From Candidatus Eiseniibacteriota bacterium (lineage in GTDB: Bacteria; Eisenbacteria; RBG-16-71-46; CAZAMP01): DNA of 64,000 nt. Below, piece after piece: positions 3,273-52,019 of the stretch (positions are counted from its first letter, which is position 1; each line of letters starts with the position of its first letter). The DNA lies in assembly GCA_965224245.1 (NCBI GenBank), contig OZ245046.1, positions 1,760,001 through 1,824,000 on the forward strand, written 5' to 3'. The translations under genes and the position numbers were made by a program. The notes under the pieces were generated by a model. That model did not search any database. It had not been told where the DNA came from and saw only the letters and a list, made by a program, of their open reading frames with translations.

Positions 3273-3282
3273 GCTGGCGTCG

Positions 3283-22836: not shown

Positions 22837-22968
22837 CAGCCCTACGTCGAGTCGTCGATCTCCGCTTCGGGGCGAGTGGTGCCCCTCACCGGTGGTCCGG
22901 CCGGTCGTGAACCGCTACATTCCCGCTGTCCCGGATGCCGTGCCTGTCCCCGGGGAAGGACGTCCCAC

Positions 22969-30900: not shown

Positions 30901-31627
30901 CGGTGAAGAGCGTCTTCTCGGTCAGCTGCTGGTTCGTCGCCTTGGCGATGCCGAAGTCGATCACCTTCGGCACCGGCGTCCCGTCGTGGAGGGTCACCAT
31001 CACGTTGGACGGCTTGATGTCCCGGTGGATGATCCCCTTCTGGTGCGCGTGCTGGACCGCGCTGCACACCGACTGGAACAGCTCGAGACGCTCGCGCGTG
31101 GTCAGGTGGTTCTGGTCGCAGTACTCGGTGATGGGGATTCCGCGGACGAGCTCCATGACGAAGTACGGGCGCCCGGTCTCGGTGGCGCCGGCGTCGAGCA
31201 CGCGGGCGATGTTCGGGTGATCCATCAGCGCGAGCGCCTGGCGCTCGGCCTCGAAGCGCGCGATGACCTGGCGGGTGTCCATGCCGAGCTTGATGATCTT
31301 CAGCGCGACCTTGCGCCGGACCGGCTTCTCTTGCTCGGCCATGTAGACCGATCCGAAGCCCCCCTCGCCGATCTGCTGCAGGAGCTTGTAGCGTCCGATG
31401 GTGATTCCCGGTCCCTCGGCGGGGGCCCCGCCGGGGAGCAGCGGCTCGGTGGGGGCCGCCAGGACGTCGCCGCCGGCGTCGCCGGCGGCCAGCAACGTCT
31501 CGACCTCGGCGCGAAGCTCCGCGTCTCCCTCGCAGGCCCGGTCGAGGAACGCCTCTCTCTCCGAGGCGGGGAGCTCGAACGCGTCCTGGAAGACTCGCTT
31601 GACCCGGCTCCAGTTCTCGGTGCTCAT
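27941..31627 (-). CDS. Ser/Thr kinase with TM helix and extended TPR region (ECF-coupled)
   Basis: ATGA overlap with the upstream [58 protein letters not shown]. Confidence 0.95.
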
Positions 31628-32205
31628 CGTCCCTCCGCGTCGTCCGGCGCCAGCTCGCGCAGCAGCCACGCTCTGGCGAGCGCCCAGTCCCGGCGCACGG
31701 TCCGGCTCGTGACTCCCAGGGCCGCCGCCGCCTCGGCCTCGGAGAGTCCGACGTAGAATCGGAGCCGGACCACGTCCGCCGCTCGTCGGTCTCGCTCCTC
31801 AAGGCGCCGGACCGCGTCGTCGAGGGACACGATTTCTTCGACGTCTGCCCGCTCGGCCAGATCGACCACGTCGAGCGGGACCCGTTTCCGGTCTCCGCCG
31901 CGCTTGATCCGCCCCCGCTTGCGCGCGTGCTCGATGAGAATCCGGCGCATGGCCTCGGCGGCGGCCACGTAGAAGTGCGCCCGGCTCTGCCAGCTCAGCT
32001 CCTGGTTACCGACGAGCCGCAGGTAGGCCTCGTGGACGAGCGCGGTCGGCTGGAGGGTGTGATCGGGTCGCTCGGCCGCCATCTCCTTCTGCGCCCGGGC
32101 CCTCAGCTGGTCGTAGACGAGGGGCAGGAGCTCCTCGACGGCCGCGCCGTCTCCTCGGCTCGCCCGGCCGAGCAGGTGCGTGACCTGGCTGGCGGAATCC
32201 GTCAT
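31624..32205 (-). CDS. ECF sigma-70 factor, ECF43/TIGR02999 type
   Basis: [60 protein letters not shown]. Confidence 0.93.
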
Positions 32206-32313: not shown

Positions 32314-32739
32314 CTACTCGGCGGGAGCGTCGTCCGAGACCCTCTCCTGCCGTCCCGGGTGCGCGTAGAGCAGCGCACGGACGATGTCGCGGTGCGCCAC
32401 GATTCCGACGATCTTCTCGCCGTCGAAGATCGGCAGGCGTCGCACGCGGGTGCGCTCCATGAGCTGCGCGCAGTGCTCGACCCGGAAGTCGGGACCGGCG
32501 AGCACGAGCGGCTTCGTGGTGATCTCGGCCACGCGGACCTTCCGGGGATCGCGGCCGGTCTCCACCACCTTGTTCACGATGTCGCTGAGGGTCACGATGC
32601 CCCACGTGTCGCTCGCGTCCCGCCGCTCCACCAGCACGCTCGACATCTCGTGCGTCCGCATGAGCTCGGTCGCCTCGAGCACCGTGAGATCGCCCCGCAC
32701 CCACACGAGCTCGCGGGTCATGATGTCCTGCGCCGTCAT
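32314..32739 (-). CDS. Stand-alone CBS-pair protein
   Basis: MTAQDIMTR..WGIVTLSDIVNKV..VRRLPIFDGEKIVGIV; ATGA overlap with the upstream gene. Confidence 0.9.
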   Translation of the reverse strand: MTAQDIMTRELVWVRGDLTVLEATELMRTHEMSSVLVERRDASDTWGIVTLSDIVNKVVETGRDPRKVRVAEITTKPLVLAGPDFRVEHCAQLMERTRVRRLPIFDGEKIVGIVAHRDIVRALLYAHPGRQERVSDDAPAE

Positions 32740-34850
32740 CGCACGTCTCGCTTTCTCGCCTCGAGGATCTCGAGAGCACGTCTCGAGCTCTCCTCCGCGG
32801 CGCGCAAGAGATCCTGGGCGTATCGGAAGTTGTGAATGGCCGCGGACGCGTCCGCGGTCACGAACGAGTAGTTCGACAGGGCCTCCTCGTACAGTCGCTC
32901 GGCCGTGGTGTCGGCGGCGGCGCCCCCGCTCCGGAGACGCGCCTCGACGCGATCGATCTGAGTCCGGACGCGGCGGTCGAGCTCCTCGATCGCCGACACG
33001 AAGGCGCGCGTCTCCTCGTCCATGTCGGTCTCGTGGCACCTGATGCACGAGCGCTCGGCGGACGGCCCGGGGGTCGGGGGTGCGTCGTCGGGCTTCCGGC
33101 CGGCGACGTCGACCCCGTGACACGCCGTGCACTTCACCTGGAAGTACTGCATGAGCGCCGGGCGTCCCCGCACACCCGCACCGGCCTCGCCTGCATAGAG
33201 CCGCTTCTGCGGCTCGTGACTGTCCACGTGGCACGCCTCGCAGTCCGTGACCGGATCCTCCTCGCGGGAGCCCGGATGCTCGATCTCGGAGTGACAGTCG
33301 AAGCAGTCGACGAGCTCCTCCCGGACGTGCACGTGATGCATCTCGGGCGTCGCGAGCCACTCGACGTCGAGGTGGCACGCGTTGCAGCGCGACGGCTCGA
33401 CCTCGATGCGTCCCCGCGAGGCGTCGCCGTGGCACGAGTGGCACTCCGCGTCCGTGCGATACGGCGTGTGATCCAGGCGAACCACGGCCGCGCCGGCTCG
33501 TGCGTCGAAGTCGTGGCATCCGCGGCACGGCGTCACCCGCTCGCTCACCGACGCGAAGTGGCAGAGGTTGCACGTGGCGGCCTCGACGGAGAAGTGGACC
33601 TTCTGGCCCCGGTGATTGTGACAGCTCGTGCACGTGGGCATGCCGATCGGCGCGAGCTCGGCGAGATGCGCCGCGTGCGAGAACGCCACGTCCGGGGCCC
33701 CGTCGACCTCGAAGCGCGGCGCGCGCGCCTGGGAGGTGTGACATCCCGATCGGAGGCACGAGGAATCGGGCACCTTGGCCACCGGCTTCGGATCGTAGGT
33801 CTTCGTGGCGTACCGGACGACCATCGCGACGCCCGTGATCTTTCCCCTCACCGCCCCCCGCAGCCCGTAGCTCCAGTGACAGGTCGTACACCGGATTTCC
33901 CGGTGCGCCGAGGTCGTCCAGGTGGCGTGATAGGGCTGCATGTTGTGGCACGACGGGCAGAGGGACGGCGTCTCGGACACCGTGGCGGTGCCCAGCACGA
34001 GCGCCACGAAGACCCCCGCGGACACGAGCGCGGCGCGCAGCACGTACGCGCGGTGAGACCAGATGCCGCGCAGAAAGAGCGATCGATTCGCCCGGCGCAG
34101 GCGCCGGCTGAGGAGTCGGGACATGCTCTCGAACACGACCGCTCCCAGGTGCTCGCGCCGGAGGGCCAGCTGGGTGAAGCGCTCACCGTCGATGACGATC
34201 ACCGTCGACGGCCGCGCGGTGCGGACGGTCGCCGAGCGCGTTCCCCCGAAGAGCTCGACCTCACCGACGATCTCACCCTCGCGGATGCGCGCGATCCGGC
34301 CGGCGCGCTTGGTGGAGACGACGAGCTCACCGGATTCGAGGAGGAACAGGCTGCGGTCCTCCTCGCCTTCCCGGATCAAAACCGTGTCCTTCGGGCAGCG
34401 CCGGAGTGACGCCAGGTTCAGGAGCGCGGCGAGGTCGTCGGCGGCGAGCCGGGAGAAGAACGGCACCCGCCTGAGAAGCGTGAAGAGCGAGAGAACGTCG
34501 TGGTAGCTGAGGATGCCCGCGGGGCGGGAGCCTTCCAGAACGAGGAGATGACGGACCCCGAAGCGCCGCATCAGCCGGCTGGCGTGACCGACGTTCAGCG
34601 AGGGGTCCACGAGGAGAAAGGCGGGTCGCATGACCGAGTCGATGCGAACCTCCGACGGGTCCAGCCCGCGCGCGGCCACCTTGGACACGATGTCGCGGTG
34701 GGTGACGATGCCCCAGGGCACGTCCTCGCGGGACGGTCGGACGATGACGCTCGAGATCCTCCGCTCGGCGAGGAGCCGGACCGCCTCGAAGAGACGCGCG
34801 TCGCCCGGCAGCACCGCCACGTCCCGGGTCATGAGGTCCAGGACCCTCAT
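32736..34850 (-). CDS. Fusion protein: CBS pair + cyclic-nucleotide-binding domain + TM + multiheme cytochrome c (11 CxxCH + 1 CX4CH)
   Basis: CBS (WGIVTHRDIV, VRHLLV); cNMP (REGE..LFLLESG..GEIVGEVELFGGTRSATV); TM AALVSAGVFVALVLG; NapC/NirT-like CPSCH..WTTSAH..CTTCH; C-terminal helical ADAS..IHNFRYA. Confidence 0.9.
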   Translation of the reverse strand: MRVLDLMTRDVAVLPGDARLFEAVRLLAERRISSVIVRPSREDVPWGIVTHRDIVSKVAARGLDPSEVRIDSVMRPAFLLVDPSLNVGHASRLMRRFGVRHLLVLEGSRPAGILSYHDVLSLFTLLRRVPFFSRLAADDLAALLNLASLRRCPKDTVLIREGEEDRSLFLLESGELVVSTKRAGRIARIREGEIVGEVELFGGTRSATVRTARPSTVIVIDGERFTQLALRREHLGAVVFESMSRLLSRRLRRANRSLFLRGIWSHRAYVLRAALVSAGVFVALVLGTATVSETPSLCPSCHNMQPYHATWTTSAHREIRCTTCHWSYGLRGAVRGKITGVAMVVRYATKTYDPKPVAKVPDSSCLRSGCHTSQARAPRFEVDGAPDVAFSHAAHLAELAPIGMPTCTSCHNHRGQKVHFSVEAATCNLCHFASVSERVTPCRGCHDFDARAGAAVVRLDHTPYRTDAECHSCHGDASRGRIEVEPSRCNACHLDVEWLATPEMHHVHVREELVDCFDCHSEIEHPGSREEDPVTDCEACHVDSHEPQKRLYAGEAGAGVRGRPALMQYFQVKCTACHGVDVAGRKPDDAPPTPGPSAERSCIRCHETDMDEETRAFVSAIEELDRRVRTQIDRVEARLRSGGAAADTTAERLYEEALSNYSFVTADASAAIHNFRYAQDLLRAAEESSRRALEILEARKRDVR

Positions 34851-34869
34851 GACGTCGTGCCGGAGGACC

Positions 34870-36117
34870 TCATGGCGACTCGCCCGGATGCTGGAGGTGC
34901 GCGAGGAGGTCCCGCAGATCGTCGCCCGTCAGCTCCGGCCAGGGATGGCCCTCGCTGAGGACGGCCTCCTTCATCACCGGCGCGTGGTTCCACATGGCCG
35001 AGACGAGGGCCGCCGGCGAGCCGATCACCTCGGCGGCGGTCAGCTCCGGTCCGGGATGCGGAACCTCTCCACCGCCGGAGTGACACTCCGCGCACGAGCG
35101 CTCGGAGAACGTCTCCGCGCCTCGACCGGCGTTTCCGGGGGCGTCGGTGAAGGGGCCGAAGTAGAGGTACGAGATGAGATCGGCCAGCTCCTGGGTCGTG
35201 AAGTGCGGCCAGGGGATGTTGCGCTCCGCGAACGCATCACGCATGACCTCGGCATGGTTCCACATCGTCCCGGCGATCGCCTCCGCCGAGCGGGGCAGCT
35301 CCCGGTCCAGGAGGTCCGGACCGAGCCCCGCATCGCCGGAGTCGGTGCGATGGCAGGTCGCGCATCCCTTCTCCTCGAACCGCCGGCGGCCGAGCTCCGG
35401 GTTTCCGGGGGCCAGGAGCGGGGTCCCGCCCGGGACCGCGGTGCCGATTCCCCGGATGTAGGCGCTGAGGTTCGCGAGGTCACCCGGCTCGAACGTGGGC
35501 GGGCGAACGCCGTGCTCGCGCATGGACTCGAACATCGCGGGGCCGTGGTTCCAGATCGCACGTGCGACGTGGAGGGGCGAGGCGAATCCGGTCAGCGCGC
35601 CGAGATCGGGTCCGATCGCGTCCCCTCGGTCCCCCACGCGGTGGCAACTCACGCATCCCCGCGCGCGAAAGACCTCACGACCGGCGTCCGTGGTGCCCGG
35701 GTCTCCGAGGTAGTCGATGTAGAAGAGAAACGCGACGAGGCGCAGCGTCTCGTCGGGAGTCAGCGTGGGCCACGCGAGCTCCATCTCCTCGAACGCGACG
35801 CTCATGCCGGGAACGTGGTTCCAGAGCGCGGCGCCGAGGTCCAGGAAGCTCCCGGAGAAGTGACCCCCGCCCAGCGCGGGCCCGATGTCGGGACCGCTTC
35901 CCGCGATCCCGTGACACCGGTTGCACCCCTTCTCCTCGAAGAGGAATCGCCCATCGATGGGGTTCTCGGGAAGGGACATCGTGTCGCTCGCGATCGCCGG
36001 GGTCACGAGGACGAGCGCGAGGACCGGGACGAGCAGCGTGCGCGCCTTCGGGAGGATCGCGCCGGCTGCTCCCGGCGTCGGGCGCCCCGTGTCGGGCGCG
36101 TTCCACGCGATGCTCAC
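34870..36117 (-). CDS. Periplasmic cytochrome c with four repeated monoheme domains
   Basis: Signal peptide; CNRCH, CVSCH, CATCH and CAECH, each followed by GP.L and WNH...M. Confidence 0.9.
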   Translation of the reverse strand: MSIAWNAPDTGRPTPGAAGAILPKARTLLVPVLALVLVTPAIASDTMSLPENPIDGRFLFEEKGCNRCHGIAGSGPDIGPALGGGHFSGSFLDLGAALWNHVPGMSVAFEEMELAWPTLTPDETLRLVAFLFYIDYLGDPGTTDAGREVFRARGCVSCHRVGDRGDAIGPDLGALTGFASPLHVARAIWNHGPAMFESMREHGVRPPTFEPGDLANLSAYIRGIGTAVPGGTPLLAPGNPELGRRRFEEKGCATCHRTDSGDAGLGPDLLDRELPRSAEAIAGTMWNHAEVMRDAFAERNIPWPHFTTQELADLISYLYFGPFTDAPGNAGRGAETFSERSCAECHSGGGEVPHPGPELTAAEVIGSPAALVSAMWNHAPVMKEAVLSEGHPWPELTGDDLRDLLAHLQHPGESP

Positions 36118-36386
36118 CGCTCCTCCTCCCGGCCGTCCTCCTCGGGCGGCCGGCGTCCCCGGCGCAGCCCCACGAACACGTACGTCAGGACGCTCGCGCC
36201 GGTCAGGTACACGGGAATCGCCACGATCGAGATGCCGATCGATGCGGACGGAACGTCGTGGAGCTGGCGCGAGAGGCGGATGAGGTGAAGGATCCAGGCG
36301 CTGATTCCGAGCACGAAGACCCAGATCATGGCCATGGAGATCACCTGCAGGACGAAGAGCGTACGCTCTTGCTTCGTGCCGCGCAT
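36114..36386 (-). CDS. Small 2-TM membrane protein of the respiratory operon
   Basis: GGAGG ribosome-binding site, two hydrophobic helices, tightly coupled to both neighbours. Confidence 0.8.
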   Translation of the reverse strand: MRGTKQERTLFVLQVISMAMIWVFVLGISAWILHLIRLSRQLHDVPSASIGISIVAIPVYLTGASVLTYVFVGLRRGRRPPEEDGREEER

Positions 36387-36388
36387 CG

Positions 36389-37780
36389 TCACCTCCCCCC
36401 CGTCGCCGGCTCGCGTCGGCCCGTGGCATCGGCCGTCAGCTCCGGCAGGTAGCTGCGCACGCGCGCGGTCGTCTCGGCGACCGACTTCTCCCGGCCCTCC
36501 CGGCTCTCCCAGATGGAGATCAGGGGAAAGAACCGGCCGAAGACGACGAACCCGATGGCCAGCGACGCCAGCCCTCCGACGAACATCCCCCACTCGACGA
36601 GGCTGGGGACGTAGAACCCGCTGGGATACGGAAGCCTCGGGTTGGCCAGGGACGGCACCACGATGTTGAGCCGCTCGAGCCACATCCCGATCATCACCGC
36701 GATCGAGGCCACGAAGATCCCCGGGATGCGACGCGTTCGACGAAAGCTCAGGATGAGAACGGGGATGACGAAGTTGCACGCCACCATCCCCCAGAAGAAC
36801 GGCGCGTAGGTGCCCTCGAACTTGTAGAGGAAGACGCGCATCTCCGTCGGCTCGTGGCCGAAGAAGGCCGTGAGGTACTCCGAGAACGTGAAGTAGAACC
36901 AGAGCAGCGACATGATCAGCAGCAGCTTCGAGAGATGGCTGAAGTGAATGGTCTTGAGGTAGCGCTCGAGATGGAAGATGCGTCGGAGCACGATCATCAT
37001 CACCAGGAGCGCCGCGATGCCGGAGAAGATGGCCCCCACGACGAAGTACGGGCCGAAGATCGTGGAGTGCCAGCCCGGCTGCAGCGTCATCGCGAAGATG
37101 TACGAGATGACGGTGTGGACCGAGACGGCGATCGGGATCACGAGCACCATGAGGATGCTCATCGCGCGCTCCAGGACCGCTTCCTGACGCGCGGTACCCT
37201 GCCAGCCCCAGGACAGAAACGCGTAGAGCCAGCGCGGGCTGACGTTACGATCCCGGAGCAGCGCGATGTCCGGAATCATCGGGATGTACAGATACACGGT
37301 CGAGGCCATGAAGTACGCGGAGATCGAGGACACGTCCCAGAGAAGGGGTGATTGAAGCCTTCCCGCGCTGAAGATGTTGAGCATGCGATCGGGTCGGCCC
37401 AGGTCGAGCACCGGGTGGACGGCGCCGATCGCCAGCACGACGACCGTGATGACCTCCGCCATCCGCGTGATGGGCCGTCGCCACTCCGCCTGCGAGAGCC
37501 GCAGGACGGCCGAGATCAGCGTCCCGGCGTGACTGATGCCGATGAAGAACACGAAGTTGACGATGTAGAAGCCCCACCCTACCGGCTGGTTCAGCCCGGT
37601 GACCCCGAGCCCTCGGAGAATCTGCCGGCTGAACAGAACCCAGCAGCCGAGGATGAGCAGCGCGAGCAGCGTGAACGTCACGCGGAAGCGCGCGCCCGCG
37701 TGCTCGACCGAGCGCAGGAGATCCACGTCCTCGCACGCGCCCGGCTCGTCGTCCCGTCTGTCCGCGACCGCGTCCGTCAT
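36389..37780 (-). CDS. NrfD/PsrC-family membrane quinol-interacting subunit (QrcD/ActC-like)
   Basis: WGFYIVNFVFFIGISHAGTLISA, RPITRMAE, DLGRPDR, SPLLWD, SVHTVIS, PGWHSTIFGPYFVVGAIFSG. Confidence 0.93.
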   Translation of the reverse strand: MTDAVADRRDDEPGACEDVDLLRSVEHAGARFRVTFTLLALLILGCWVLFSRQILRGLGVTGLNQPVGWGFYIVNFVFFIGISHAGTLISAVLRLSQAEWRRPITRMAEVITVVVLAIGAVHPVLDLGRPDRMLNIFSAGRLQSPLLWDVSSISAYFMASTVYLYIPMIPDIALLRDRNVSPRWLYAFLSWGWQGTARQEAVLERAMSILMVLVIPIAVSVHTVISYIFAMTLQPGWHSTIFGPYFVVGAIFSGIAALLVMMIVLRRIFHLERYLKTIHFSHLSKLLLIMSLLWFYFTFSEYLTAFFGHEPTEMRVFLYKFEGTYAPFFWGMVACNFVIPVLILSFRRTRRIPGIFVASIAVMIGMWLERLNIVVPSLANPRLPYPSGFYVPSLVEWGMFVGGLASLAIGFVVFGRFFPLISIWESREGREKSVAETTARVRSYLPELTADATGRREPATGGR

Positions 37781-37808
37781 CGTTCGCCTCTCTCCCTCGT
37801 TCACGCCG

Positions 37809-38495
37809 TCACTCGGTCTCCGAGAGATAGATCACCTTGGGCCGGGTTCCGAGGTCCGCGTGCAGGCGGAACGCCCGGGAGCTCCGGGCCAGGTCGCTCA
37901 CCCGGCTGGCCGGATCGTCGAGGTCCCCGAACTCGATCGCCCGGGCCGGGCAGCTCTCCGCACAGGCGGGGACCACGTCGCCGTCCCGTAGCTCGCGCTC
38001 CTCGACACGCGCCTGCTCCTTCGCCTGGTTGATCCGGTGGTGACAGAACGTGCACTTCTCCACGACGCCCTTGTAGCGACGCGACACGTCGGGGTTCGCC
38101 TTCCGAGCGAGATCACCGGGCCACTCGGGCTCGTACCAGTTGAAGACCTTGGCGTTGTACGGACACGCGGCCATGCAGTACCGGCAGCCGATGCACCGGG
38201 CGTAGATCTGCCCGACGATCCCCTCGTCACCGAGATACGTCGCGTGCACCGGACACACCCGCACACAGGGCGGGTCGTCGCACTGGAAGCACGGCTGCGG
38301 CATGTACGTGACCTTGGTCTCCGCATGGCTTTCCGAGACCTCGCTGATGACCCGCATCCAGTGGAAAGCACGGCTCCTCTCCACCGCCTCCTCCTTTCCG
38401 GAAGCGGCCAGGTTGTTCTCTTGATGGCAGGCGGCCATGCAGGCCCCGCATCCCGTGCAGCGGTCGAGATCGATGACCATGCCCCATCGTGCCAT
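37809..38495 (-). CDS. 4Fe-4S dicluster electron-transfer subunit (NrfC/QrcC-like)
   Basis: CTGCGACMAAC, CFQCDDPPCVRVCP, CIGCRYCMAACP, KCTFC..CAESCP. Confidence 0.95.
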   Translation of the reverse strand: MARWGMVIDLDRCTGCGACMAACHQENNLAASGKEEAVERSRAFHWMRVISEVSESHAETKVTYMPQPCFQCDDPPCVRVCPVHATYLGDEGIVGQIYARCIGCRYCMAACPYNAKVFNWYEPEWPGDLARKANPDVSRRYKGVVEKCTFCHHRINQAKEQARVEERELRDGDVVPACAESCPARAIEFGDLDDPASRVSDLARSSRAFRLHADLGTRPKVIYLSETE

Positions 38496-40948
38496 CAGGT
38501 GTGCCCTCCCTCGTGCGGAGGCGGCCCGCCATGCCGGCGGCGCCGCGTCACGTGAAGCGTCACCGGGGTGGGGCCGGCCGCGAGCGTGCCGTCCAGCGCG
38601 TCGGGGGCCGTGGAGACGATCTCCAGCGGGTTGCTCCCCGCACCGCCCACGCGTTCGTTCAGCGTGTCATGACCCAGCCCGATCGGAACGTGGGCGACCC
38701 CGGGCATCCCACCCCGCTGCACGCGCACCTCCGCCTCGATCGTGCCCCGATCGGAGCGAATGGCCACGCGGTCGCCGTGCTCGACGCCCAGCTCGTGCGC
38801 CGTGGACGGCGCGAGCTCGACCCAGGTGGTCCAGCCCGAGAAGACGGTGTGCCCGAACATCTCGAGCAGCATCGGCGAGACGACCCCCAGATCTCCTCGC
38901 GACGTGATCGGTCGGAAGCAGACCATCGTCAGCTCCGCCGCCTCGTCCGGCTCCGTGGGCTCGTGATGGGGCAGGCAGCTCTCGTCGCTCCCGGTCTCGA
39001 CGCCGCTCGCGCGCTCGTGCTCGAGCAGACGCTGGGAGAAGAACTCGAAGCGACCGGATGCGGTGGCGAACACCCGGCTCCAGTCCGCCTCGGCCCGCAC
39101 CGGCGACCACCAGCCCGCATCGCGCACCATGTCCTCCCAGAGCTCGTCGACGCTCGTGTGGGTCATGAATCGCCACCCGCGCTCCTCCAGGAAGTGGACC
39201 CACGACTCCTCGAACGATCCGCGCGCGATCGCCCCCTGCCCCGACGTCACGAGCCCGGAGAGCCGGTGCTCCAGGTAGGTGTCGTATCGCTCCCAGGGGA
39301 GATGCGAGGCGACCGGCTCACCCAGGCGGGCCGCCAGGCTCAGCAACGTGTCGCCCGCGGTCCGGGTGTCGAACAGCGGCTCCACCACGGGATGACCGAG
39401 ACCGACGCTGTTGAACCCCACCGTCGGAGGCGTGGTGCTCTCGCGCCACGACTCCAGGAACATGGGTGTGGGCAGGATCAGCTGGGCGAGCGAGGAGGTC
39501 TCGTCCAGCACGGAGGTCATCGCGACCACCAGAGGAATCCGGCTCAGTGCCTCGCGCAGCCGATCCCCGGCCGGGCTCGAATGCACCGGGTTGGCGCCGA
39601 CGATGAGCAGAACGTCCAGCGGATGCGAGCCCGAGAGCACGCCGTCGGCCAGCGCCTCCACGGGGTCCGCTCCGAACCGGTGCGACCCGGGGCGCGGCGC
39701 GAAGAGCGACGAGGAGCGATCCAGCGATGGATCCGCGACGGGATCCAGCGGAAGGAACGGGACCCGTGCCGGCAACAGCACCCCCCCCGGTCGCTGAAAG
39801 GCCCCCATGAGCGCGTTGAGAGCGTGTACGCAGACCGCGGTCGCGGTCGCGTTGGAGCCCGCGAGCGCCTCGCCGCCGCTCAGCGCGAGCGGCGCCGATC
39901 CGCGCGCGAAGCGACGCGCGAGATGGATGATGGCGGCCGCCTCGCAGCCGCAAATCGCGGCCACGCGATCGGGGTAGTAGCGCTCCAGGAGGAGGCGACG
40001 AAACCCCATGTGGGGGCGACCCTGATCGTCCGTCCAGTCCTCGAATCCGAAGGTGTGCTCGGCGACGAAGCGGCGATCGTGCCGGCCCTCGCGGACGATC
40101 ACGTGGGCGATGCCCAGGGCCAGGGCGCCGTGCGTGCCGGGTCGGACCGGGAGGTACTGCCTCGCCTTCGCCGCCGAGGGGGAGAGTCGCGTGCCCACGT
40201 GAAGCAGCGTGCAGCGCTCTCCGGATGCCCGCGAGCCCACCAGCGCCGAGATCGCGTGCACCGGTGCCGGACCGTCCTCGTACAGGTCGAGCCCGAACGA
40301 GAGCACGACGTCCGCACGTGCCAGGTCGAAGGCCGGAATCTCGTCCAGGCCCTGCGTGAGCCGGAAGGGCAGCGCGCGATCGACCGAGGGGCGCGAGACG
40401 TTCGGCGACCCGATCGACTCGCCGAAGCGAACGGCCAGCTCGTGGAAGAGCGATCCCGTCTCGCCCGAGAGGATGGCCATGCGTGATCCGTCTCCCGCGG
40501 TCCTGAGCGCGTCCAGGCGCGAGGCGATCCGGTCCAGCGCCTCTTCCCACGTCGTGGGCCGCCGCTCGCCGCTCGCCTCGAGGACGAGCGGTCCCCGGAT
40601 GCGCTCGGGCGCGTAGAGAAGCTCCAGCGCGGAGCACCCGACCGGACACAGCCCGCCCCGGTTCAGGGGATGATCCGGACTGCCCTTGACCCCCACCGGC
40701 AGTCCGTCCACCAGACGCACTCGCAGCCCGCAGCCGCTCTCGCAGAGGCCGCAGATCGTGCTGGCGCCGCTCTCGATGCCGGGTCCGCGGAGGGCGAGCT
40801 CGACGAGATGCTCCGGCACCGACCACTCCCGATCGCAGCCGAGCAGCGTGGCGCCACTCGAGACGCCCAGGAGGCGGAGGAAGTCGCGCCGCGGCAAGCG
40901 CCTCACGTCGTTCCCCTCGATCGCGGTCCACGCTCTCTCCGTCGTCAC
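38495..40948 (-). CDS. Molybdopterin-oxidoreductase-family large subunit, QrcB-like (Tat lipoprotein)
   Basis: RRDFLRLLG Tat motif plus LLGC lipobox; CGLCESGC..LC Fe-S motif; PVRPGTHGALALG; C-terminal molydop-binding-like domain. Confidence 0.9.
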   Translation of the reverse strand: MTTERAWTAIEGNDVRRLPRRDFLRLLGVSSGATLLGCDREWSVPEHLVELALRGPGIESGASTICGLCESGCGLRVRLVDGLPVGVKGSPDHPLNRGGLCPVGCSALELLYAPERIRGPLVLEASGERRPTTWEEALDRIASRLDALRTAGDGSRMAILSGETGSLFHELAVRFGESIGSPNVSRPSVDRALPFRLTQGLDEIPAFDLARADVVLSFGLDLYEDGPAPVHAISALVGSRASGERCTLLHVGTRLSPSAAKARQYLPVRPGTHGALALGIAHVIVREGRHDRRFVAEHTFGFEDWTDDQGRPHMGFRRLLLERYYPDRVAAICGCEAAAIIHLARRFARGSAPLALSGGEALAGSNATATAVCVHALNALMGAFQRPGGVLLPARVPFLPLDPVADPSLDRSSSLFAPRPGSHRFGADPVEALADGVLSGSHPLDVLLIVGANPVHSSPAGDRLREALSRIPLVVAMTSVLDETSSLAQLILPTPMFLESWRESTTPPTVGFNSVGLGHPVVEPLFDTRTAGDTLLSLAARLGEPVASHLPWERYDTYLEHRLSGLVTSGQGAIARGSFEESWVHFLEERGWRFMTHTSVDELWEDMVRDAGWWSPVRAEADWSRVFATASGRFEFFSQRLLEHERASGVETGSDESCLPHHEPTEPDEAAELTMVCFRPITSRGDLGVVSPMLLEMFGHTVFSGWTTWVELAPSTAHELGVEHGDRVAIRSDRGTIEAEVRVQRGGMPGVAHVPIGLGHDTLNERVGGAGSNPLEIVSTAPDALDGTLAAGPTPVTLHVTRRRRHGGPPPHEGGHT

Positions 40949-40972
40949 CTGCCTACCTCCCGTTCGCGACGC

Positions 40973-41509
40973 TCACCGGTGACAGGACACACAGTCGTTC
41001 GAGGCGGCTCGTTCCTGGTGGCACTGCATGCAGTCGTCCATGCGCATGCGCACGAGGGGTCGCGTGAGCGGCACCTCGCGCTCCTCGATCGGTCCGTGAC
41101 AGCGCCCGCACTCGATCCCGCCCACCGCCGTGTGCCGGCGATGCGAGAAGTACACGTGCTCGGGCACGACGTTGACCTTTCTCCACGGGATCGGGACCCC
41201 GTCGCGTATGTACTCCACGGTGCGCGCCTCCTCGGCCGACTCCGTCATCGCCTCCTCGTGGCAGTCGACGCAGACCTCGATGTTGGGGATCGTCGCGCGT
41301 ACGCCCTTCCGCGCGTACACGTGACAGTCCGTGCACTCCAGGCCCGCGTCCTCGACGTGGAGGTGATGGTTGAACGCGATCGGCTGGGTGATCGCCGCAC
41401 CGAGCGCGGCCGGTGCCGCCAGCAGGAGGACGATCCAGCGAGCGTTCCGCAGCCGGTCGCCTCCTCGCCGGCCGCGGCGCCGGCGGCCGTCGGTGGCTGT
41501 GCGCGTCAT
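40973..41509 (-). CDS. Pentaheme cytochrome c (QrcA/ActA-like)
   Basis: QPIAFNHHLH, CTDCH, CVDCH, VYFSHRRH, CGRCH, CMQCH, CVSCH. Confidence 0.92.
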   Translation of the reverse strand: MTRTATDGRRRRGRRGGDRLRNARWIVLLLAAPAALGAAITQPIAFNHHLHVEDAGLECTDCHVYARKGVRATIPNIEVCVDCHEEAMTESAEEARTVEYIRDGVPIPWRKVNVVPEHVYFSHRRHTAVGGIECGRCHGPIEEREVPLTRPLVRMRMDDCMQCHQERAASNDCVSCHR

Positions 41510-42729
41510 CGCACCGTCTCCGTGGCCCGTGACAGCTCGATGTCCAGGTGCTGCGTCTCCATGATGACCGGCCGGTAGCGATACGAGAGCTCGGCGCTGA
41601 TGTTCACGGGGCGCCGCTGTCGGACGTAGAACCGGAAGCGCTCGACTTGCTCCCCTCTCGGCGCGACCCGGTTGTCGCTCACCACCTTCGCGCCGTAGAG
41701 GATGGCCTCCCAGTCGGTGTCGATGATGTTGCCGTCCGCGTCGGCGATCACCTTCCGGTAGCGCCGCTCCTGCTCGGTGGTCAGGCCGTCGACCTCCGCG
41801 GTGACGGTGAGCACGACCTCCCGGCTCGGCATTCCGGTCGGCACCTTGTGTCCGGAGCCAACGTTGGCGACTCGCACCCGGACGTCGACGTCGTCTCCGG
41901 TCCGCGTCGCGCCGATGATCTCCACCGACATGGCGTCGCGGAGCTGGTTGCTGTCGTGGATCAGGTCGTGAAGGTGCATGTCCGCCTGCGAGGCCTTGAC
42001 CTCCTCGCTCACCACCCGTCCCTCGCCCAGGACCATGTGACAGGTCTGACAGGGCTTGCCCTCCTCGGCGTAGGGTCCTTCCCGCCACTCGTCGTAGGTG
42101 CTCATGATCGCGGCCCCACCGGGCGCCACGTAGTTGTGGCAGCCGGCACAGAACTCGGCGGTGCCGTGGAGCTCGGAGAACGCCACGTCGTGCGCCGGCG
42201 ATGCCGCCTTCCTCAGGATGCTCCGCTTGATGGGGCCCACGTCGAAGAGATAGGGCACGTCGGCTCCGGCGGGAGCGAGCCCGGACACGGTGTGGCAGAA
42301 GTCACAGCTCACGCCCTCGCGCGTCACGCCCTGCACCAGCTCGTAGTCTCGGTTCGTCATCGTCATCGGCGCGTGGCAGCGGAGACACAGGCTCTTTGCG
42401 TCGTCGCCCGCCTCCTTCAGCGCCATCATGTACGCCGCGTCGAAGATGGGATCGGTCAGCGAGAACGCGTGGAGGCTTCTCTTCCACGATTCGTAGATGT
42501 CGGTGTGGCAGCGACCGCAGACCTGCGCGCTCGTGTAGCCATCCTCGTTGATGGAAACCGACCCGGCGTGTGGCTCGCTCCCGGTCGATGCCGCACGGCC
42601 GACGGCTGCCGGCCCGGCCATCGTCGCCGCGACGGCGAGCGCCGCCGCCAGGATCGGGATCGGTCTCGCGTATCGCCGGGTGCCCACCCGGGCGGTCGTG
42701 GGGAAGCGGGATGGCGCGGCGACGTGCAT
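41506..42729 (-). CDS. Exported pentaheme cytochrome c (c554/c552-like) with C-terminal beta domain
   Basis: Signal peptide; CGRCH, CLRCH, CDFCH, CAGCH, CQTCH; GHKVPTG. Confidence 0.9.
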   Translation of the reverse strand: MHVAAPSRFPTTARVGTRRYARPIPILAAALAVAATMAGPAAVGRAASTGSEPHAGSVSINEDGYTSAQVCGRCHTDIYESWKRSLHAFSLTDPIFDAAYMMALKEAGDDAKSLCLRCHAPMTMTNRDYELVQGVTREGVSCDFCHTVSGLAPAGADVPYLFDVGPIKRSILRKAASPAHDVAFSELHGTAEFCAGCHNYVAPGGAAIMSTYDEWREGPYAEEGKPCQTCHMVLGEGRVVSEEVKASQADMHLHDLIHDSNQLRDAMSVEIIGATRTGDDVDVRVRVANVGSGHKVPTGMPSREVVLTVTAEVDGLTTEQERRYRKVIADADGNIIDTDWEAILYGAKVVSDNRVAPRGEQVERFRFYVRQRRPVNISAELSYRYRPVIMETQHLDIELSRATETVR

Positions 42730-42783
42730 CGGGGACCCCCCGTCGAAAGAGCCGAGCGACTCCGGACTTCACGACATGAGCCG

Positions 42784-42799
42784 AGCAAGGAGCGTACCG
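42784..42799 (-). promoter_or_regulatory. Sigma-54 (-24/-12) promoter of the respiratory operon
   Basis: Minus strand CGGTACGCTCCTTGCT (GG-N10-GC), ~55 nt upstream of the first gene and just downstream of an NtrC-type activator gene. Confidence 0.75.
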
Positions 42800-42872
42800 C
42801 TGGCGCGATCACGCTAACTGGCTGCGGGAGAAGTCTTTCCAGACGAAGGTGAATCAGTGCGAATCGGCACGA

Positions 42873-42887
42873 CTGACAGATTGTCAG
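42873..42887. promoter_or_regulatory. Palindromic upstream activator site candidate
   Basis: CTGACA-gat-TGTCAG, ~75-90 bp upstream of the -24 box. Confidence 0.6.
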
Positions 42888-42951
42888 GCCGGAGCGTGCG
42901 ACCCGGTCTGGCGCAGGGACTTGGCGCGTGCCACGCCGCGCGGAGCGGGTG

Positions 42952-44316
42952 TCAGTTCTGGCGCGAGTCCTCGACGTCACCCGATCGGAGCTTGCGATAG
43001 AGCGTCCGCTCGCTGATGCCGAGCGCCGCCGCCGCGCGGGCGCGGTTCCCATCGAAGCGCTGGAGCAGGTCGTGGATGTACCGTCGCTCGACCTCCTGCA
43101 GCGACAGCGGCGGCTCGTCGGCGTCGCCTGCCCGGTCCTCCGAGGTTGCCGCGAGGTTCGTCGGCAGGTGGCGCCGGCTGATCGCTCCCCCCTCCGAGAG
43201 GATCAGCGCACGCTCGATCACGTTCCGGAGCTCGCGCGCGTTCCCCGGCCACGCGTATGCGCGCAGCATCTCCATCGCGCCGTCGTCCATGGGGGGCGGG
43301 TCGGACGGGCGAAGACGCGAGAGAAAGTGGAGGGCCAGCGGGCCGATGTCCTCGACGCGCTCCCGGAGGGGGGGCACGTCGATGCGAAAGACGTTCAGCC
43401 GGTAGTAGAGATCCTCGCGGAAGGTCCCCTCGCGAACGAGCGCCTCCAGGTCGCGATGCGTGGCGGCGAGCACGCGCACATCCACCCGGATCGACTCCTC
43501 ACCCCCGAGCCGCCGGAACGCGCCCGTCTCCAGCACGCGGAGAAGGCGGGTCTGGAGCGACATCGTCGCGTCCCCGATCTCGTCGATGAGGATGGTCCCC
43601 GAGTCGGCCAGCTCGAAGAGCCCGTGCTTGCGCGCGCTGGCGCCCGTGTAGGCGCCCCGCTCGTGCCCGAACAGCTCCGAGAGCGCGAGGTTCTCCTCGG
43701 TGGAGCCGCAGTCGAGCACCACGAGCGGCCGCTCGCGTCGGGGTCCCTGGCGATGGATGACGCGGGAGACGACCTCCTTGCCCGTGCCGCTCTCGCCGCG
43801 GATGAGCACGGTCGAGCTCGTGGGCGCGACCTTCTCGATCAGCGCCTTCAGGCGCCGCACGGAGTCCGAGCGGCCGATCAGCTCGGGGCTCTCGGAGCGG
43901 CGGTGGAGCGAGTGGCGAAGCGCCGCGTTCTCCGAGCGCATGGCGCGCTTCTCCGCCGCGCGCCGGATGGTCGACTCCAGATGATCCAGATCACACGGCT
44001 TGGTGAGAAAGTCGTACGCGCCCAGCTTGAGGGCCTGGACCGCCGACTCCACCGACCCGTGGCCCGTGAGGATGATGACCTCGGTGAGCTCCCGGACCTT
44101 CTTGATTCGCTCCAGCGTGTCGATCCCGTTCATGTGCGCCATCCGCAGGTCCAGCACGACGACGTCGTAGGGGGTGTGAAGAAGGGCCTCCTCGACGTCC
44201 TCGCCGCGGCTCCTCGTCTCCACCTGGATGTTCGCCGCGTTCAGCTCCCGCGCCAGGACGGTTCGAAACGTATCGTCGTCGTCCACGATCAGCACCGAGG
44301 GATTCAGCGCGCTCAC
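42952..44316 (-). CDS. Sigma-54-dependent response regulator (NtrC/AtoC family)
   Basis: REC domain (IVDDD, LDLRM), GESGTGKE, ELFGHERGAYTGA, DEIG, FREDLYYRLNV, Fis HTH LGISERTLYRKL. Confidence 0.97.
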   Translation of the reverse strand: MSALNPSVLIVDDDDTFRTVLARELNAANIQVETRSRGEDVEEALLHTPYDVVVLDLRMAHMNGIDTLERIKKVRELTEVIILTGHGSVESAVQALKLGAYDFLTKPCDLDHLESTIRRAAEKRAMRSENAALRHSLHRRSESPELIGRSDSVRRLKALIEKVAPTSSTVLIRGESGTGKEVVSRVIHRQGPRRERPLVVLDCGSTEENLALSELFGHERGAYTGASARKHGLFELADSGTILIDEIGDATMSLQTRLLRVLETGAFRRLGGEESIRVDVRVLAATHRDLEALVREGTFREDLYYRLNVFRIDVPPLRERVEDIGPLALHFLSRLRPSDPPPMDDGAMEMLRAYAWPGNARELRNVIERALILSEGGAISRRHLPTNLAATSEDRAGDADEPPLSLQEVERRYIHDLLQRFDGNRARAAAALGISERTLYRKLRSGDVEDSRQN

Positions 44317-46190
44317 GACCGCACCTCCTCGGCGGCACGCGGCGCCGCCGGCAGGAGGATCGTGAACGCGGCTCCCTCCCCCGGAGCGCTCGAGACCCGT
44401 ATCGAGCCCCCGAGCCCGTCCACGATGATCTTCGAGATGAACAGCCCGAGCCCGGTGCCCTTCCCATCGGAGCGGGCGGAGTAGAACGGCTCAAAGACCT
44501 TCGAGAGCGCCGCCGGCTCGATGCCGCGACCGGTGTCCGTGACCTCCACCCGCACGAACGCGTCCTCGGTCGACTCGACGCGCACGACGAGCCGACCGGG
44601 ACCGTCCATCGACTGCACGGCGTTCAGGAGAACGTTCAGGACGACCTGCCGGATCTTCGCCTGATCCGCGAGGACGATGCACGCCTCGGTCGCCACGCGC
44701 TCGACGACGTCCACTCGCCCCTTTCGGCACTCGTAGCGCAACAGCGCGAGCGTGTCCCGAACGACGGCCCCGACGTCGACGGGCTCCCGGTGGGGTCGCG
44801 GGTTCCGCCCGAGCAGCTTGAGCCGCTCGGTCAGACGCTGGCACCGCCCGACCTCACCGCGGATGAGATCCAGGTACTCCGGAAGCTCGTCGGGGATCTG
44901 CCGGCTCTCGGCGTCGCGCAGCCGGCGTCGCAGACCGTCGAGGCACGTCGTGATGGAGGCCAGAGGGTTGTTGATCTCGTGCGAGATGCCCGAGGCCAGA
45001 AGCCCGAGCGACGCGAGGCGCTCCTGGCTGGCCAGGTGGGCCTCGATCTCCCTGCGCTGCGTGATGTCGCGCCAGATCTCGATGACCTGACGTCGCCCGG
45101 AGGCGGTGTTCAGCGGCGAGGCGGAGATCTCGAAGTGGCGGGGATCGTCTCCGTCTCCGCCGAGCGTGCGAACCCGGCGGGTGACCGCACCGGTGCTGAA
45201 GGTGCTGCGCGCGGGGCAGTCCGCGAGATCCTCGCCGCTGCACAGTCCCGCGCAGTCGCAGCGCCCCGCGAGCGGGGACTCGGTACCTCCCAGTCGTTCG
45301 AAGGCCTCGTTCGCCGTGACCACGTTGAGATCCTCGTCCACGACCACGATCCCGTCGGCCGCCGAGTGGATGACGGCATCCAGAAAGGCCTCCCGCTCCC
45401 TCAGGCGTCGAAGCGTGTGATCGAGACTTCGCGTCATCCGGTTGAGGTGGTCTCCGAGCCGATCGATCTCGTCGGCGCCGCGCACGCTGGCGGAGCGATC
45501 CAGGTCTCCGGCCTCGATCGAGTCCACCACCGTCACCAGAGACGCCAGACGACGCAGCACGAGGCGCCGCATCACGATCATGATCACCGCGATGATGGCC
45601 ACCGAGAGCGTGACCGCCGAGAGCCACATCTTGCGGGTGCTGGCGCTGAGGCTCGCGTCGATCCCCGCCATGGAGTAGTCGACGATCAACACACCGTTCA
45701 CCCGATCGTCCGGGGAGTGGCACTCGTGGCACGCGTCACTGTTGAGGATCGGGTTCACGTTGCGAAACACGCGGTGACCGTCATGGGTCTCGAACGTCAC
45801 CGTTCGCCCCCGAACCGAGGGACCGTGCCGGTGGCAGATCTTGCATGTCGGATCGGACAGCGAGAGCACCCGCCCCCGGTCGGCGGGGTCGGAGGAGAAC
45901 CGGATCACCCCCTTCTTGTTCAGGATCATGACGTTCTCGACGCTCTTCTGATCGGCGAGCCGGCGGACCATCTCCCCGAGATGATCCAGAGAGCGCGAGT
46001 GCATCGCGTGGCGAAGGCTCTGCTCGACGAGCTTGCCCTCGATGGCCGTGGATTCGGCGAGGGAGGCGATCATCTGGCGGCGGTAGTAGTCCTGGAGGAT
46101 CCAGAACGAACCTCCACCGATCACCAGCACGGTGAGCACCACGACCGCTGTGAGCCGGGAGCTCAGAGATCGGAGCGGCGGCCGGAGCAT
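44313..46190 (-). CDS. Sensor histidine kinase with periplasmic di-heme-c domain, HAMP and PAS
   Basis: Two TM helices flank CKICH and CHECH; HAMP DEIDRLG; PAS with CDCAGLC..CP; H-box SHEINNPL; DTGRGI and GTGLGL. Confidence 0.95.
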   Translation of the reverse strand: MLRPPLRSLSSRLTAVVVLTVLVIGGGSFWILQDYYRRQMIASLAESTAIEGKLVEQSLRHAMHSRSLDHLGEMVRRLADQKSVENVMILNKKGVIRFSSDPADRGRVLSLSDPTCKICHRHGPSVRGRTVTFETHDGHRVFRNVNPILNSDACHECHSPDDRVNGVLIVDYSMAGIDASLSASTRKMWLSAVTLSVAIIAVIMIVMRRLVLRRLASLVTVVDSIEAGDLDRSASVRGADEIDRLGDHLNRMTRSLDHTLRRLREREAFLDAVIHSAADGIVVVDEDLNVVTANEAFERLGGTESPLAGRCDCAGLCSGEDLADCPARSTFSTGAVTRRVRTLGGDGDDPRHFEISASPLNTASGRRQVIEIWRDITQRREIEAHLASQERLASLGLLASGISHEINNPLASITTCLDGLRRRLRDAESRQIPDELPEYLDLIRGEVGRCQRLTERLKLLGRNPRPHREPVDVGAVVRDTLALLRYECRKGRVDVVERVATEACIVLADQAKIRQVVLNVLLNAVQSMDGPGRLVVRVESTEDAFVRVEVTDTGRGIEPAALSKVFEPFYSARSDGKGTGLGLFISKIIVDGLGGSIRVSSAPGEGAAFTILLPAAPRAAEEVRS

Positions 46191-48935: not shown

Positions 48936-49046
48936 GGCGCGCACGGTAGCACAACTCGTGGCGCTGCCACCTTCACAGGACGTCTCGTGTCCGTCGTCGG
49001 CTCACCCGGGGCGCCCGTGACATCCCCCTGGTCCTCCTCGCCGCGC

Positions 49047-51704: not shown

Positions 51705-51768
51705 CCCGGTCCCCCCGCTTCGGGAACGTACTCTGCGTGAGCCGGCGCCCGTCCTCCCGCGACCGCTC

Positions 51769-51852
51769 GCGGCAGACCTCGCCCATGCCTCCGGCTCCGA
51801 GTTGCGAGACAATCTCGTAGGGGCCGAGGCGAGCTTCGAGGTCGAGAGCCAA
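51769..51852 (-). pseudogene. Stub of a Ser/Thr kinase N-terminus
   Basis: (TTG)ALDLEARLGPYEIVSQLGAGGMGEVCR, after which homology is lost; upstream GAGGA and TACTCT remain. Confidence 0.7.
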
Positions 51853-52019
51853 CGCGAAGGGGTCCTCTCGATTCACAGGCCGAGAGAGTATCAGGGCGTC
51901 GTGGTCCTCCACCAGGCTCCCGATGGAGAAGCCGGGAGTCGGGAGTGGCGTGACGCCCGCCAGGCGCTCTACAGTCTCATGTCACTCCGGCTCGACTCCA
52001 CGTGACGGAGGTCTGGGAC

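Follow-up and report, generated by a model that had tools for sequence, protein, structure and literature searches.

Alternative complex III (ACIII), for which the solved structures from Rhodothermus marinus (6f0k), Flavobacterium johnsoniae (6btm) and Roseiflexus castenholzii (6lod) and the entry 8k9e served as our references, and QrcABCD, the menaquinone reductase of sulfate reducers, are the described systems that most resemble a gene cluster that we analyzed in the genome of a Candidatus Eiseniibacteriota bacterium (assembly GCA_965224245.1). The cluster lies in a 64-kb stretch of contig OZ245046.1 (positions 1,760,001 to 1,824,000 of the forward strand), referred to here as the window, and consists of genes for a sensor histidine kinase (HK), an NtrC-type activator and nine further proteins, G3 to G11 (Table 1). 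In their accessible parts, reports on the known systems state that the B1 part of R. marinus ActB holds no prosthetic group (PMC5928083), that the split ActB1 of iron oxidizers carries the motif FS0, CX2CX3CX27C (PMC4643136), and that the MBNT15 bacterium SHF-111 encodes an ACIII-like 'cluster 4' with ActABCD and a four-heme ActE-like protein, located away from oxidase genes and beside further NrfD, iron-sulfur and multiheme operons (PMC9386147). The comparisons described here support the membership of G4 to G9 in the ACIII/Qrc family; this core is a new member of a known family, and the unusual element of the locus is G10, a multiheme cytochrome that carries signaling domains. The explanation that we favor, with slightly better than even confidence, is that the locus encodes an ACIII/Qrc-type complex under sigma-54 control together with an NrfH-type cytochrome, G10, whose activity would be gated from the cytoplasm.

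Genes in the window, which has a G+C content of about 69%, were chosen by third-position G+C content and start-codon context, domain names were taken from Pfam, and subunits were placed by their bit scores against PDB chains and NCBIfam models. A first-pass annotation of this DNA had proposed an ACIII/Qrc assignment, and the match of G7 to the ActC chains of all four references (6f0k_C, 256 bits; 6btm_C, 247 bits; 8k9e_C, 244 bits; 6lod_C, 243 bits; ActF chains, 34-59 bits) and of G4 to the corresponding subunit A chains (8k9e_A, 6btm_A, 6lod_A and 6f0k_A, 73-86 bits), which identifies G4 as ActA-like, bears this out. Among the NCBIfam models, those of Qrc gave the best scores for G4 (QrcA, 117.5 bits), G5 (QrcB, 296.8 bits, compared with 163 bits for PhsA) and G6 (QrcC, 299.9 bits, compared with 185 bits for DsrO, whose cut-off is 200), all below the respective equivalog cut-offs of 180, 440 and 400, and the QrcD model scored 36.4 bits on G7 against a cut-off of 570. 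G7 shares 76-86% identity with the best 119 non-self matches listed, and when the quinol pocket of R. marinus ActC was mapped onto it, six of the eight residues checked were kept (W82, I86, F89, P136, D169 and S245); G7 also has a new invariant histidine, His130, beside the conserved proline. In the alignment of G5, the molybdenum (Mo)-ligand cysteine of ArrA and PsrA falls opposite a gap or a residue other than cysteine, in a stretch that is unconserved and contains any cysteine in 3 of 64 homologues, and the [4Fe-4S] motif FS0 is exact in 61 of 62 aligned homologues, suggesting that G5 is a Mo-less scaffold that probably retains one iron-sulfur cluster, in which it agrees with the split ActB1 of iron oxidizers and departs from the cofactor-free B1 of R. 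marinus. The N-terminus of G5 (window 40850-40948) contains a twin-arginine motif followed by a lipobox-like Leu-Leu-Gly-Cys, so the protein may be a lipoprotein exported by the twin-arginine translocation (Tat) pathway.

The remaining core subunits depart further from known ACIII. G8, a protein with two transmembrane (TM) segments, could be assigned to neither a Pfam nor an NCBIfam family, was matched by no PDB sequence at E values up to 10 and fell only into unnamed clusters of the ESM Atlas; ActD has a conserved glutamate in its second TM segment and cytoplasmic beta-alpha-beta motifs, whereas neither hydrophobic segment of G8 contains a glutamate and these motifs are absent. G9 scored 93 bits with Cytochrom_C in three stretches and 71 bits with Cytochrome_CBB3, and no ActE chain was among its PDB matches at E values up to 0.01. 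The operon holds a single NrfD gene and hence no second one corresponding to ActF. The view of the first-pass annotation that the accessory set is not that of ActD, ActE and ActF is therefore upheld, all three being absent in their usual form.

To place this core among other genomes, a profile built from G7 and 24 homologues was scanned against one genome per GTDB species, and relatives of G7 were encoded by at least 574 of the 595 pattern matches, in many phyla. Locus comparisons were made with the best 80 of these (L001 to L080; G7 identity, 61-83%), which derive from Acidobacteriota, Ignavibacteria, Calditrichota, Bacteroidota, Fidelibacterota, Krumholzibacteriia, Eisenbacteria, Myxococcota, KSB1 and others. 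G4, G5 and G6 occur in order in all 56 loci with at least 3.9 kb upstream, and G9 lies directly downstream of G7/G8 in 49 of the 62 loci with at least 1.7 kb downstream. Seven of the remaining 13 (L035, L038, L040, L048, L054, L057 and L066) have G8 and G9 matches elsewhere in the locus, just ahead of ActA in L035 and L038, whose genes were mapped, and four loci (L031, L064, L069 and L071) have G8 with no G9 found. Thus G8 and G9, which had initially been taken for special add-ons, belong to the core, since they travel with it across phyla and a cluster with a four-heme ActE-like protein is already in print; the co-occurrence expected of accessory genes was found for these two, and it failed for G10 and G11, as detailed below.

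We conclude that the six-gene module G4-G9 is a widespread variant within the ACIII/Qrc family, with a split ActB, no ActF, a minimal 2-TM protein in place of ActD and a tetraheme cytochrome in place of ActE. Some genomes hold two copies, since L049 and L050 come from the same Rhodothermales genome bin. The module is not the undescribed variant that it had seemed to be at first: it has been noticed in print, though not studied, the literature searched (subscription journals lying outside its scope) containing mentions in genome annotation only and, as far as its accessible text goes, a single description of the four-heme ActE-like variant (PMC9386147). The accessible part of a 2021 review of NrfD complexes does not list it (PMC8076601). 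With at least 574 species genomes, this is a common, uncharacterized branch of the ACIII/Qrc family that deserves a name and biochemical study.

G10 joins a CBS pair (71 bits) and a cNMP-binding domain (60.7 bits, cut-off 27.5) to a single TM helix (residues 273-291), beyond which come 11 CxxCH motifs and one CX4CH, the twelfth. Heme 1 is a CxxCHxM motif at residues 298-304, seven residues past the helix, a motif that is the signature of NrfH heme 1, and all 12 heme motifs as well as M304 are invariant in 11 aligned sequences. Matches to NrfH itself are weak (TIGR03153, 37.7 bits with a cut-off of 134; 2j7a_C, E 0.003), PF03264 is annotated in five of seven close homologues in precomputed assignments, and the C-terminal third resembles PDB 6i5b (E 2.7e-12), presumably the Thermincola surface cytochrome OcwA. 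The cNMP cassette residues Gly-Glu and Arg-Ser-Ala are conserved in all eight members of the G10 family, from which binding of a cyclic nucleotide is predicted. In an AlphaFold model of G10 (mean predicted local distance difference test score, pLDDT, 59.8), residues 1-240 are confident and one continuous helix (233-292) leads from the C-helix of the cNMP domain through the membrane; the nearest folds found by Foldseek were CBS-CP12 and the CBS-plus-CNBH cytosolic regions of the CNNM2/3 transporters, and CBS/cNMP look-alikes were the only ones reported.

This architecture is rare. Full CBS-cNMP-heme homologues of G10 numbered seven among 18 matches in a collection of 5.8 billion proteins (52-56% identity), and an exhaustive search of 1.84 billion representatives brought in P0164 as a further, distant relative of full length. 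For G11 there are 21 orthologues (62-82% identity), and four of them lie on contigs identical in size (13442, 4971, 78481 and 6260 bp) to those of four of the seven G10 homologues, and we therefore take G10 and G11 to be a conserved co-located pair. In a phmmer search, none of the 80 module loci contained a G10-like or G11-like CBS or cNMP domain. Judged by these searches, G10 and G11 are a rare, lineage-specific addition to the operon.

The heme domain of G10, on the other hand, is common, with 221 representatives matching at E values up to 1e-30. From the best 150 of these listed, 19 with a long N-terminal extension were inspected, and 21 relatives were run against Pfam. Three proteins, P0164, P0306 and P0204, carry a soluble signaling domain in the N-terminal position that it has in G10 (Table 1), and in 14 of the 19 the extension is polytopic, its predicted helices ranging from 4 to more than 20, and the part preceding the heme domain matches no Pfam family. 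In two sets of proteins, P0174, P0206, P0211, P0224, P0246 and P0300 (about 1135-1441 amino acids) and P0170, P0180, P0207, P0243, P0265 and P0303 (755-821 amino acids), the heme domain stands behind a large polytopic region that matches no Pfam family and for which about 9-13 or more than 20 helices are predicted. Receivers are by nature input domains, and CBS and cNMP domains are ligand-binding input modules. Since P0204 bears a receiver, its cytochrome must be the regulated part, and by analogy the G10 cytochrome may likewise be regulated by its cytoplasmic domains. We raise, as a tentative idea, that G10 could be the first described example of a class of respiratory multiheme cytochromes switched from the cytoplasm, NrfH-type quinol dehydrogenases in which the single membrane helix is extended into a second-messenger, adenylate or phospho-receiver domain; no description of a CBS- or cNMP-fused multiheme cytochrome was found in the literature searched, subscription journals being outside its scope.

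Signaling proteins also occur separately from the cytochromes. Homologous stand-alone cNMP-domain proteins of 159-193 amino acids lie 0.15-0.65 kb from the module in four unrelated loci (Pfam cNMP_binding, 46 and 49 bits for those of L014 and L018; Table 1), and stand-alone receiver proteins are encoded upstream of ActA in nine loci. The original notion of a nucleotide-sensing respiratory system is thus narrowed to G10, G11 and these small proteins.

On the minus strand, all eleven genes follow one another in the same orientation from 46190 down to 32314, with a third-position G+C content of 0.80-0.91. HK and the NtrC gene, G3 and G4, G8 and G9, and G10 and G11 overlap by 4 nt (ATGA at G10/G11), G5 and G6 overlap by 1 nt, and the remaining junctions among the nine genes are gaps of 2-24 nt, the start of G10 being 19 nt past G9. 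A 222-nt spacer separates the NtrC gene from the closely packed genes G3-G11. No sigma-70-like promoter was found inside the operon in a promoter scan, and one terminator-like site was observed there compared with 3.0 expected from shuffles. A division of the operon by a terminator or an internal promoter was considered and rejected, no such element having been found. The overlapping or closely spaced genes, the absence of a sigma-70-like promoter, the paucity of terminator-like sites and the sigma-54 site upstream suggest that G3-G11 form one sigma-54 transcription unit of nine genes, a point that we hold somewhat more probable than its opposite, as part of the overall explanation. The four cytochromes together contain 26 heme-c motifs (G3, 5; G4, 5; G9, 4; G10, 12), and one extra CxxCH in G6 falls within an iron-sulfur cysteine motif and is not a heme site; the initial gene set, with its kinase, activator, promoter, nine genes and motif count, is confirmed.

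The two CxxCH motifs of HK (residues 116 and 154) fall between its TM segments (about 13-31 and 188-206), indicating a periplasmic di-heme-c domain. Together with the 10/12 match to the -24/-12 consensus, this agrees with the di-heme kinase and sigma-54 promoter proposed at first sight. The sensor domain is weakly like those of Geobacter heme-c chemoreceptors (3b42, E 0.04; 3b47, E 0.14) and scores 24 bits with Pfam Mcp40H-20_sensor, below the 27-bit cut-off; the kinase of L012, which shares 31% identity over 97% of HK and has two CxxCH at the same spacing, is the only one in the loci with the same di-heme sensor. The activator is composed of receiver, AAA+ and Fis-type helix-turn-helix domains with a GAYTGA loop in its translation, so that an AAA+ activator with a GAFTGA-type loop and a predicted -24/-12 promoter upstream of the target are both present. 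Sites of 10/12 quality number four in total over both strands of the window (128 kb scanned). Sites scoring 11/12 were found 45 nt upstream of the G3 homologue in L012 and also in L013. An NtrC-type gene is present in 13 loci, in most of which a kinase gene adjoins it; a sigma-54 site of at least 10/12 lies within 450 nt upstream of ActA in 2 of 55 loci, and a wider scan from NtrC to ActA in the 13 loci gave such sites only in L012, L013, L033 and L080, so conservation of the promoter is modest. The palindrome TGACA-N3-TGTCA, about 75 nt upstream of the -24 element, is short and is not conserved in L012, the closest locus, making it at best a weak candidate for the activator site. Upstream of its 11/12 site, at a distance of about 140-185 nt, L012 has two inverted 17-nt copies (L012:3977-4026) that are separated by 16 nt and show 94% complementarity. 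They resemble a tandem activator-binding site and are unlike the short palindrome of the window.

Combining these observations, we propose the following mechanism. The hemes of HK would sense a periplasmic redox or ligand signal and, through the activator, switch the operon on. Menaquinol would be oxidized at a periplasmic-side site of G7, if its likeness to ActC is a guide to direction, and electrons would then pass through the iron-sulfur subunit G6 into a heme wire formed by the ActA-like G4 and the tetraheme G9, feeding periplasmic cytochromes; the Mo-less G5 would be structural while keeping its additional FS0 cluster motif. Through G10 the quinone pool would have another connection to the periplasmic cytochromes, probably one that pumps no protons. 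The activity of G10 would be set by a cyclic nucleotide or adenylate bound on the cytoplasmic side; the single helix between the cNMP domain and the membrane anchor beside heme 1 would transmit the signal, and G11 may pair with the CBS module of G10. On the more tentative idea of a class of cytochromes switched in this way, the flow of electrons between the quinone pool and the periplasmic cytochromes would be gated after translation by cAMP or cGMP, by energy charge or by a two-component signal, and the cell could choose between a proton-pumping ACIII-like route and a non-pumping bypass. Post-translational control by small molecules is well known for channels and transporters, and functional fused domains would place respiratory electron flow under the same kind of control.

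Several observations weigh against this explanation. G7 keeps one of the three charged residues of the ActC quinol pocket and has Asp134 in place of His139 and Ile236 in place of Asp253, so the chemistry or the direction at the quinone site may differ from that of ACIII. The NrfH-type assignment of G10 meets a Pfam NapC/NirT (Cytochrom_NNT) score of 22.6 bits, just under the cut-off of 24.1, and a model of the heme domain that is unreliable (pLDDT below 50 for most of residues 292-609). In the stand-alone proteins of L014 and L018 the Glu and Arg of the cassette are missing, so these proteins may not bind cyclic nucleotides. Neither G10 nor G11 occurs downstream of the module in any locus with room for them (at least 4.3 kb; 47 loci, among them the five close relatives L003, L005, L007, L011 and L012), which indicates that the complex works without them and that their link to it rests on one operon. 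None of the seven contig sizes of the G10 homologues recurs among the best 120 of thousands of G7 matches.

The altered pocket lends some weight to the opposite direction of flow, in which periplasmic or extracellular donors would pass electrons to the cytochromes and on to menaquinone, as proposed for the split-ActB clusters of iron oxidizers. The Qrc models are the best NCBIfam matches of G4, G5 and G6, and G5 is a split ActB1 with the CX2CX3CX27C motif given for iron-oxidizer act clusters in the accessible part of PMC4643136. However, the four Qrc scores all fall short of their cut-offs, most severely for QrcD, the NrfD subunit G7 is of the ActC type, and the 64-kb window contains no hydrogenase, formate dehydrogenase or known iron oxidase; the neighbors in nine annotated loci (Rieske/cytochrome b, NapC/NirT-type and secretion-tailed multihemes) fit either direction. 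We regard this reversal as doubtful, though it deserves to be kept in view.

Alternatively, G10 and G11 could be true subunits docked on the ACIII-like complex, as the first-pass annotation had supposed, in which case the activity of the whole complex would follow cytoplasmic nucleotide levels. The short distance from G9 to G10 within one predicted transcription unit is consistent with this, as are the full-length, 293-bit relative of the heme domain of G10 that L068 encodes 3 kb upstream of its module, the small cNMP-domain proteins beside the module in four loci, the receiver proteins upstream in nine, and the loss of the cytoplasmic domain of ActD, which leaves room for another cytoplasmic partner. 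Against it stand the absence of both genes from all 47 loci with room and the nature of the heme-domain family, whose members are mostly independent NrfH-like proteins with their own membrane anchor and their own likely quinol site. The subunit claim thus fails on co-occurrence, and we consider it unlikely.

A role for G10 as a transmembrane redox sensor, whose periplasmic hemes would report to the cytoplasm with the CBS-cNMP part or G11 as output, appears highly improbable: heme-c sensor domains exist, the kinase of this operon being one candidate, and G11 could be a released partner, but CBS and cNMP domains are established ligand-binding input modules, P0204 carries a receiver, an input, in the same place, and the twelve hemes, the first of them of NrfH type, speak for electron transfer rather than sensing. 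Finally, although the best solved structures for G5 are ArrA (162 bits) and PsrA (148 bits) and it has a twin-arginine signal and the FS0 motif, we reject as scarcely credible a working Psr/Arr-type molybdoenzyme that would make the cluster a terminal reductase for a sulfur or arsenic compound, given its missing Mo-ligand cysteine, the unconserved stretch around it and the better fit of the QrcB model than of PhsA.

Upstream of the core, G3 is a periplasmic pentaheme that resembles PDB 5ze8, 'cytochrome c552' (E 3e-13), and whose C-terminal half scores 59 bits with NCBIfam ExtKL (cut-off 250). Among the 80 loci, its homologues are confined to the close loci L001, L004, L012 and L030. G3 may be a soluble shuttle, added by this lineage, that would likely carry electrons to an acceptor whose genes lie in another part of the genome. 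The 64-kb window (26 flanking genes annotated) was found to contain no outer-membrane conduit and no terminal reductase or oxidase, which gives no support to the initial description of the system as self-contained.

For the surroundings of the module in other organisms, we annotated 95 flanking proteins from nine loci with Pfam. Rieske and cytochrome b genes are both present in L014, L021, L035 and L038, and cytochrome b alone was called in L068 (L014:15478-17143, L021:13510-15060, L035:1623-3145, L038:1628-3165 and L068:13381-14586); 9-11-heme cytochromes follow these genes. Two different types of quinol oxidoreductase are thus encoded side by side. Small c554-type cytochromes are found near the module in L014, L035, L064 and L068, NapC/NirT-type multihemes in L021, L035 and L068, a second NrfD gene in L038 and L068, and CcmF in L035 and L038. 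Upstream of the module, L014:2703-5633 and L064:4146-6275 encode large EB_dh (ethylbenzene-dehydrogenase-like) proteins with a type IX secretion sorting tail, the former also with seven CxxCH motifs and heme domains, which suggests a cell-surface end point of electron transfer in those organisms. From this variety, the module sits in larger electron-transfer neighborhoods without a fixed end point.

The 26 annotated flanking genes of the window are mostly extracytoplasmic function (ECF) sigma factors, Ser/Thr kinases and nitrogen or transport genes. Four ECF sigma genes are of the Sigma70_ECF (PF07638) type (4533-5144, 6282-7031, 8165-8749 and 31624-32205), and the window is also dense in large Ser/Thr kinases, eight in all, whose tails are TPR or PD40 beta-propeller regions (Table 1). 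Two of the ECF sigma genes are immediately upstream of a kinase gene. Grouped at the left end of the window (264-4473) are genes for an ammonium transporter, a glutamine-synthetase-like protein and a glutaminase to which EF-hand-like and ankyrin repeats are fused; the first two open reading frame calls overlap by about 340 nt, so one of the starts was probably misplaced. In a single open reading frame at 55650-57827, a family 3 solute-binding protein domain is joined to a sodium:dicarboxylate symporter domain.

Table 1. Features of the locus and of related proteins (window coordinates unless a locus is named; aa, amino acids)
Feature	Coordinates	Strand	Length and evidence
HK, sensor histidine kinase	44313..46190	-	625 aa; HAMP-PAS-HisKA-HATPase (Pfam)
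NtrC-type sigma-54 activator	42952..44316	-	454 aa; Response_reg 99, Sigma54_activat 217, HTH_8 51 bits
Palindrome TGACA-N3-TGTCA, candidate activator site	42874..42886	-	about 75 nt upstream of -24 element
Predicted sigma-54 -24/-12 promoter	42784..42799	-	10/12 consensus positions, GG-N10-GC spacing; 55 nt before G3 start codon
G3, periplasmic pentaheme with non-heme C-terminal domain	41506..42729	-	407 aa; 5 CxxCH; Pfam Cytochrome_C554 41 bits
G4, ActA-like membrane-anchored pentaheme	40973..41509	-	178 aa; 5 CxxCH, one N-terminal hydrophobic segment
G5, ActB1/QrcB-like molybdopterin-family subunit	38495..40948	-	817 aa; twin-arginine signal (predicted Tat export)
G6, ActB2/QrcC-like four-cluster iron-sulfur subunit	37809..38495	-	228 aa; Fer4 families (Pfam)
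G7, ActC-like NrfD quinone-site membrane subunit	36389..37804	-	471 aa; match to ActC chains
G8, 2-TM subunit in the gene position of ActD	36114..36386	-	90 aa; homologues in 66/80 loci
G9, tetraheme of four class I cytochrome c repeats in the gene position of ActE	34870..36117	-	415 aa; 4 CxxCH
G10, CBS pair, cNMP-binding domain, one TM helix and NrfH-type 12-heme periplasmic domain	32736..34850	-	704 aa; Pfam
G11, stand-alone CBS-pair protein, translationally coupled to G10	32314..32739	-	141 aa; CBS 85 bits
P0164, G10 relative			CBS and cNMP; 40% identity to G10
P0306, G10 relative			923 aa; cNMP alone; 19 CxxCH
P0204, G10 relative			604 aa; response-regulator receiver
Stand-alone cNMP-domain proteins	L014:13565-14083, L018:12423-12899, L034:4430-4906, L013:4377-4877		
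Ser/Thr kinases of the window	8620-11409, 20062-22836, 22876-25602, 27941-31669, 46272-48944, 49047-51812, 52002-54560, 58910-61768		

Set against the known systems, the core shares with ACIII an ActA-like anchored pentaheme, a Mo-less B1 combined with a four-cluster B2, the gene order A-B-C-small TM protein-cytochrome, and an NrfD subunit of the same length as ActC that keeps most of the pocket residues, including Asp169. It differs from ACIII in that ActB is split into two genes with the FS0 motif in B1, ActF is missing, G8 is a 2-TM protein without detectable likeness to ActD, G9 is a tetraheme whereas ActE is a monoheme, and His139 and Asp253 of the quinol pocket are replaced. It resembles QrcABCD in its separate QrcB-like and QrcC-like genes and in the best NCBIfam models of G4-G6, whereas the scores of all four subunits are below the equivalog cut-offs, the NrfD subunit is of the ActC type and G4 has five hemes. 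QrcA is a six-heme protein. By its description, which is what the comparison rests on, cluster 4 of SHF-111 matches the six-gene module and its neighbors in other phyla, and it differs in being known from genome annotation, with CBS or cNMP genes not mentioned in the accessible part of the source (PMC9386147).

G10, for its part, resembles proteins of two kinds. Members of the NrfH/NapC/NirT/CymA family usually have four or five hemes; G10 shares with them a TM helix on the N-terminal side that is followed at once by a CxxCHxM heme 1, and differs by its twelve hemes and a 260-residue cytoplasmic CBS-cNMP extension. With CNNM2/3 (6n7e and 6mn6), MloK1 and HCN it has in common a tandem CBS pair and a cNMP-type beta-roll attached to a membrane protein, Foldseek aligning about 295-309 columns of the CNNM cytosolic domains with the G10 model. 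In contrast to those proteins, the module of G10 precedes the membrane helix, retains Glu and Arg as in a true cNMP site and is joined to a redox protein rather than to a transporter or channel.

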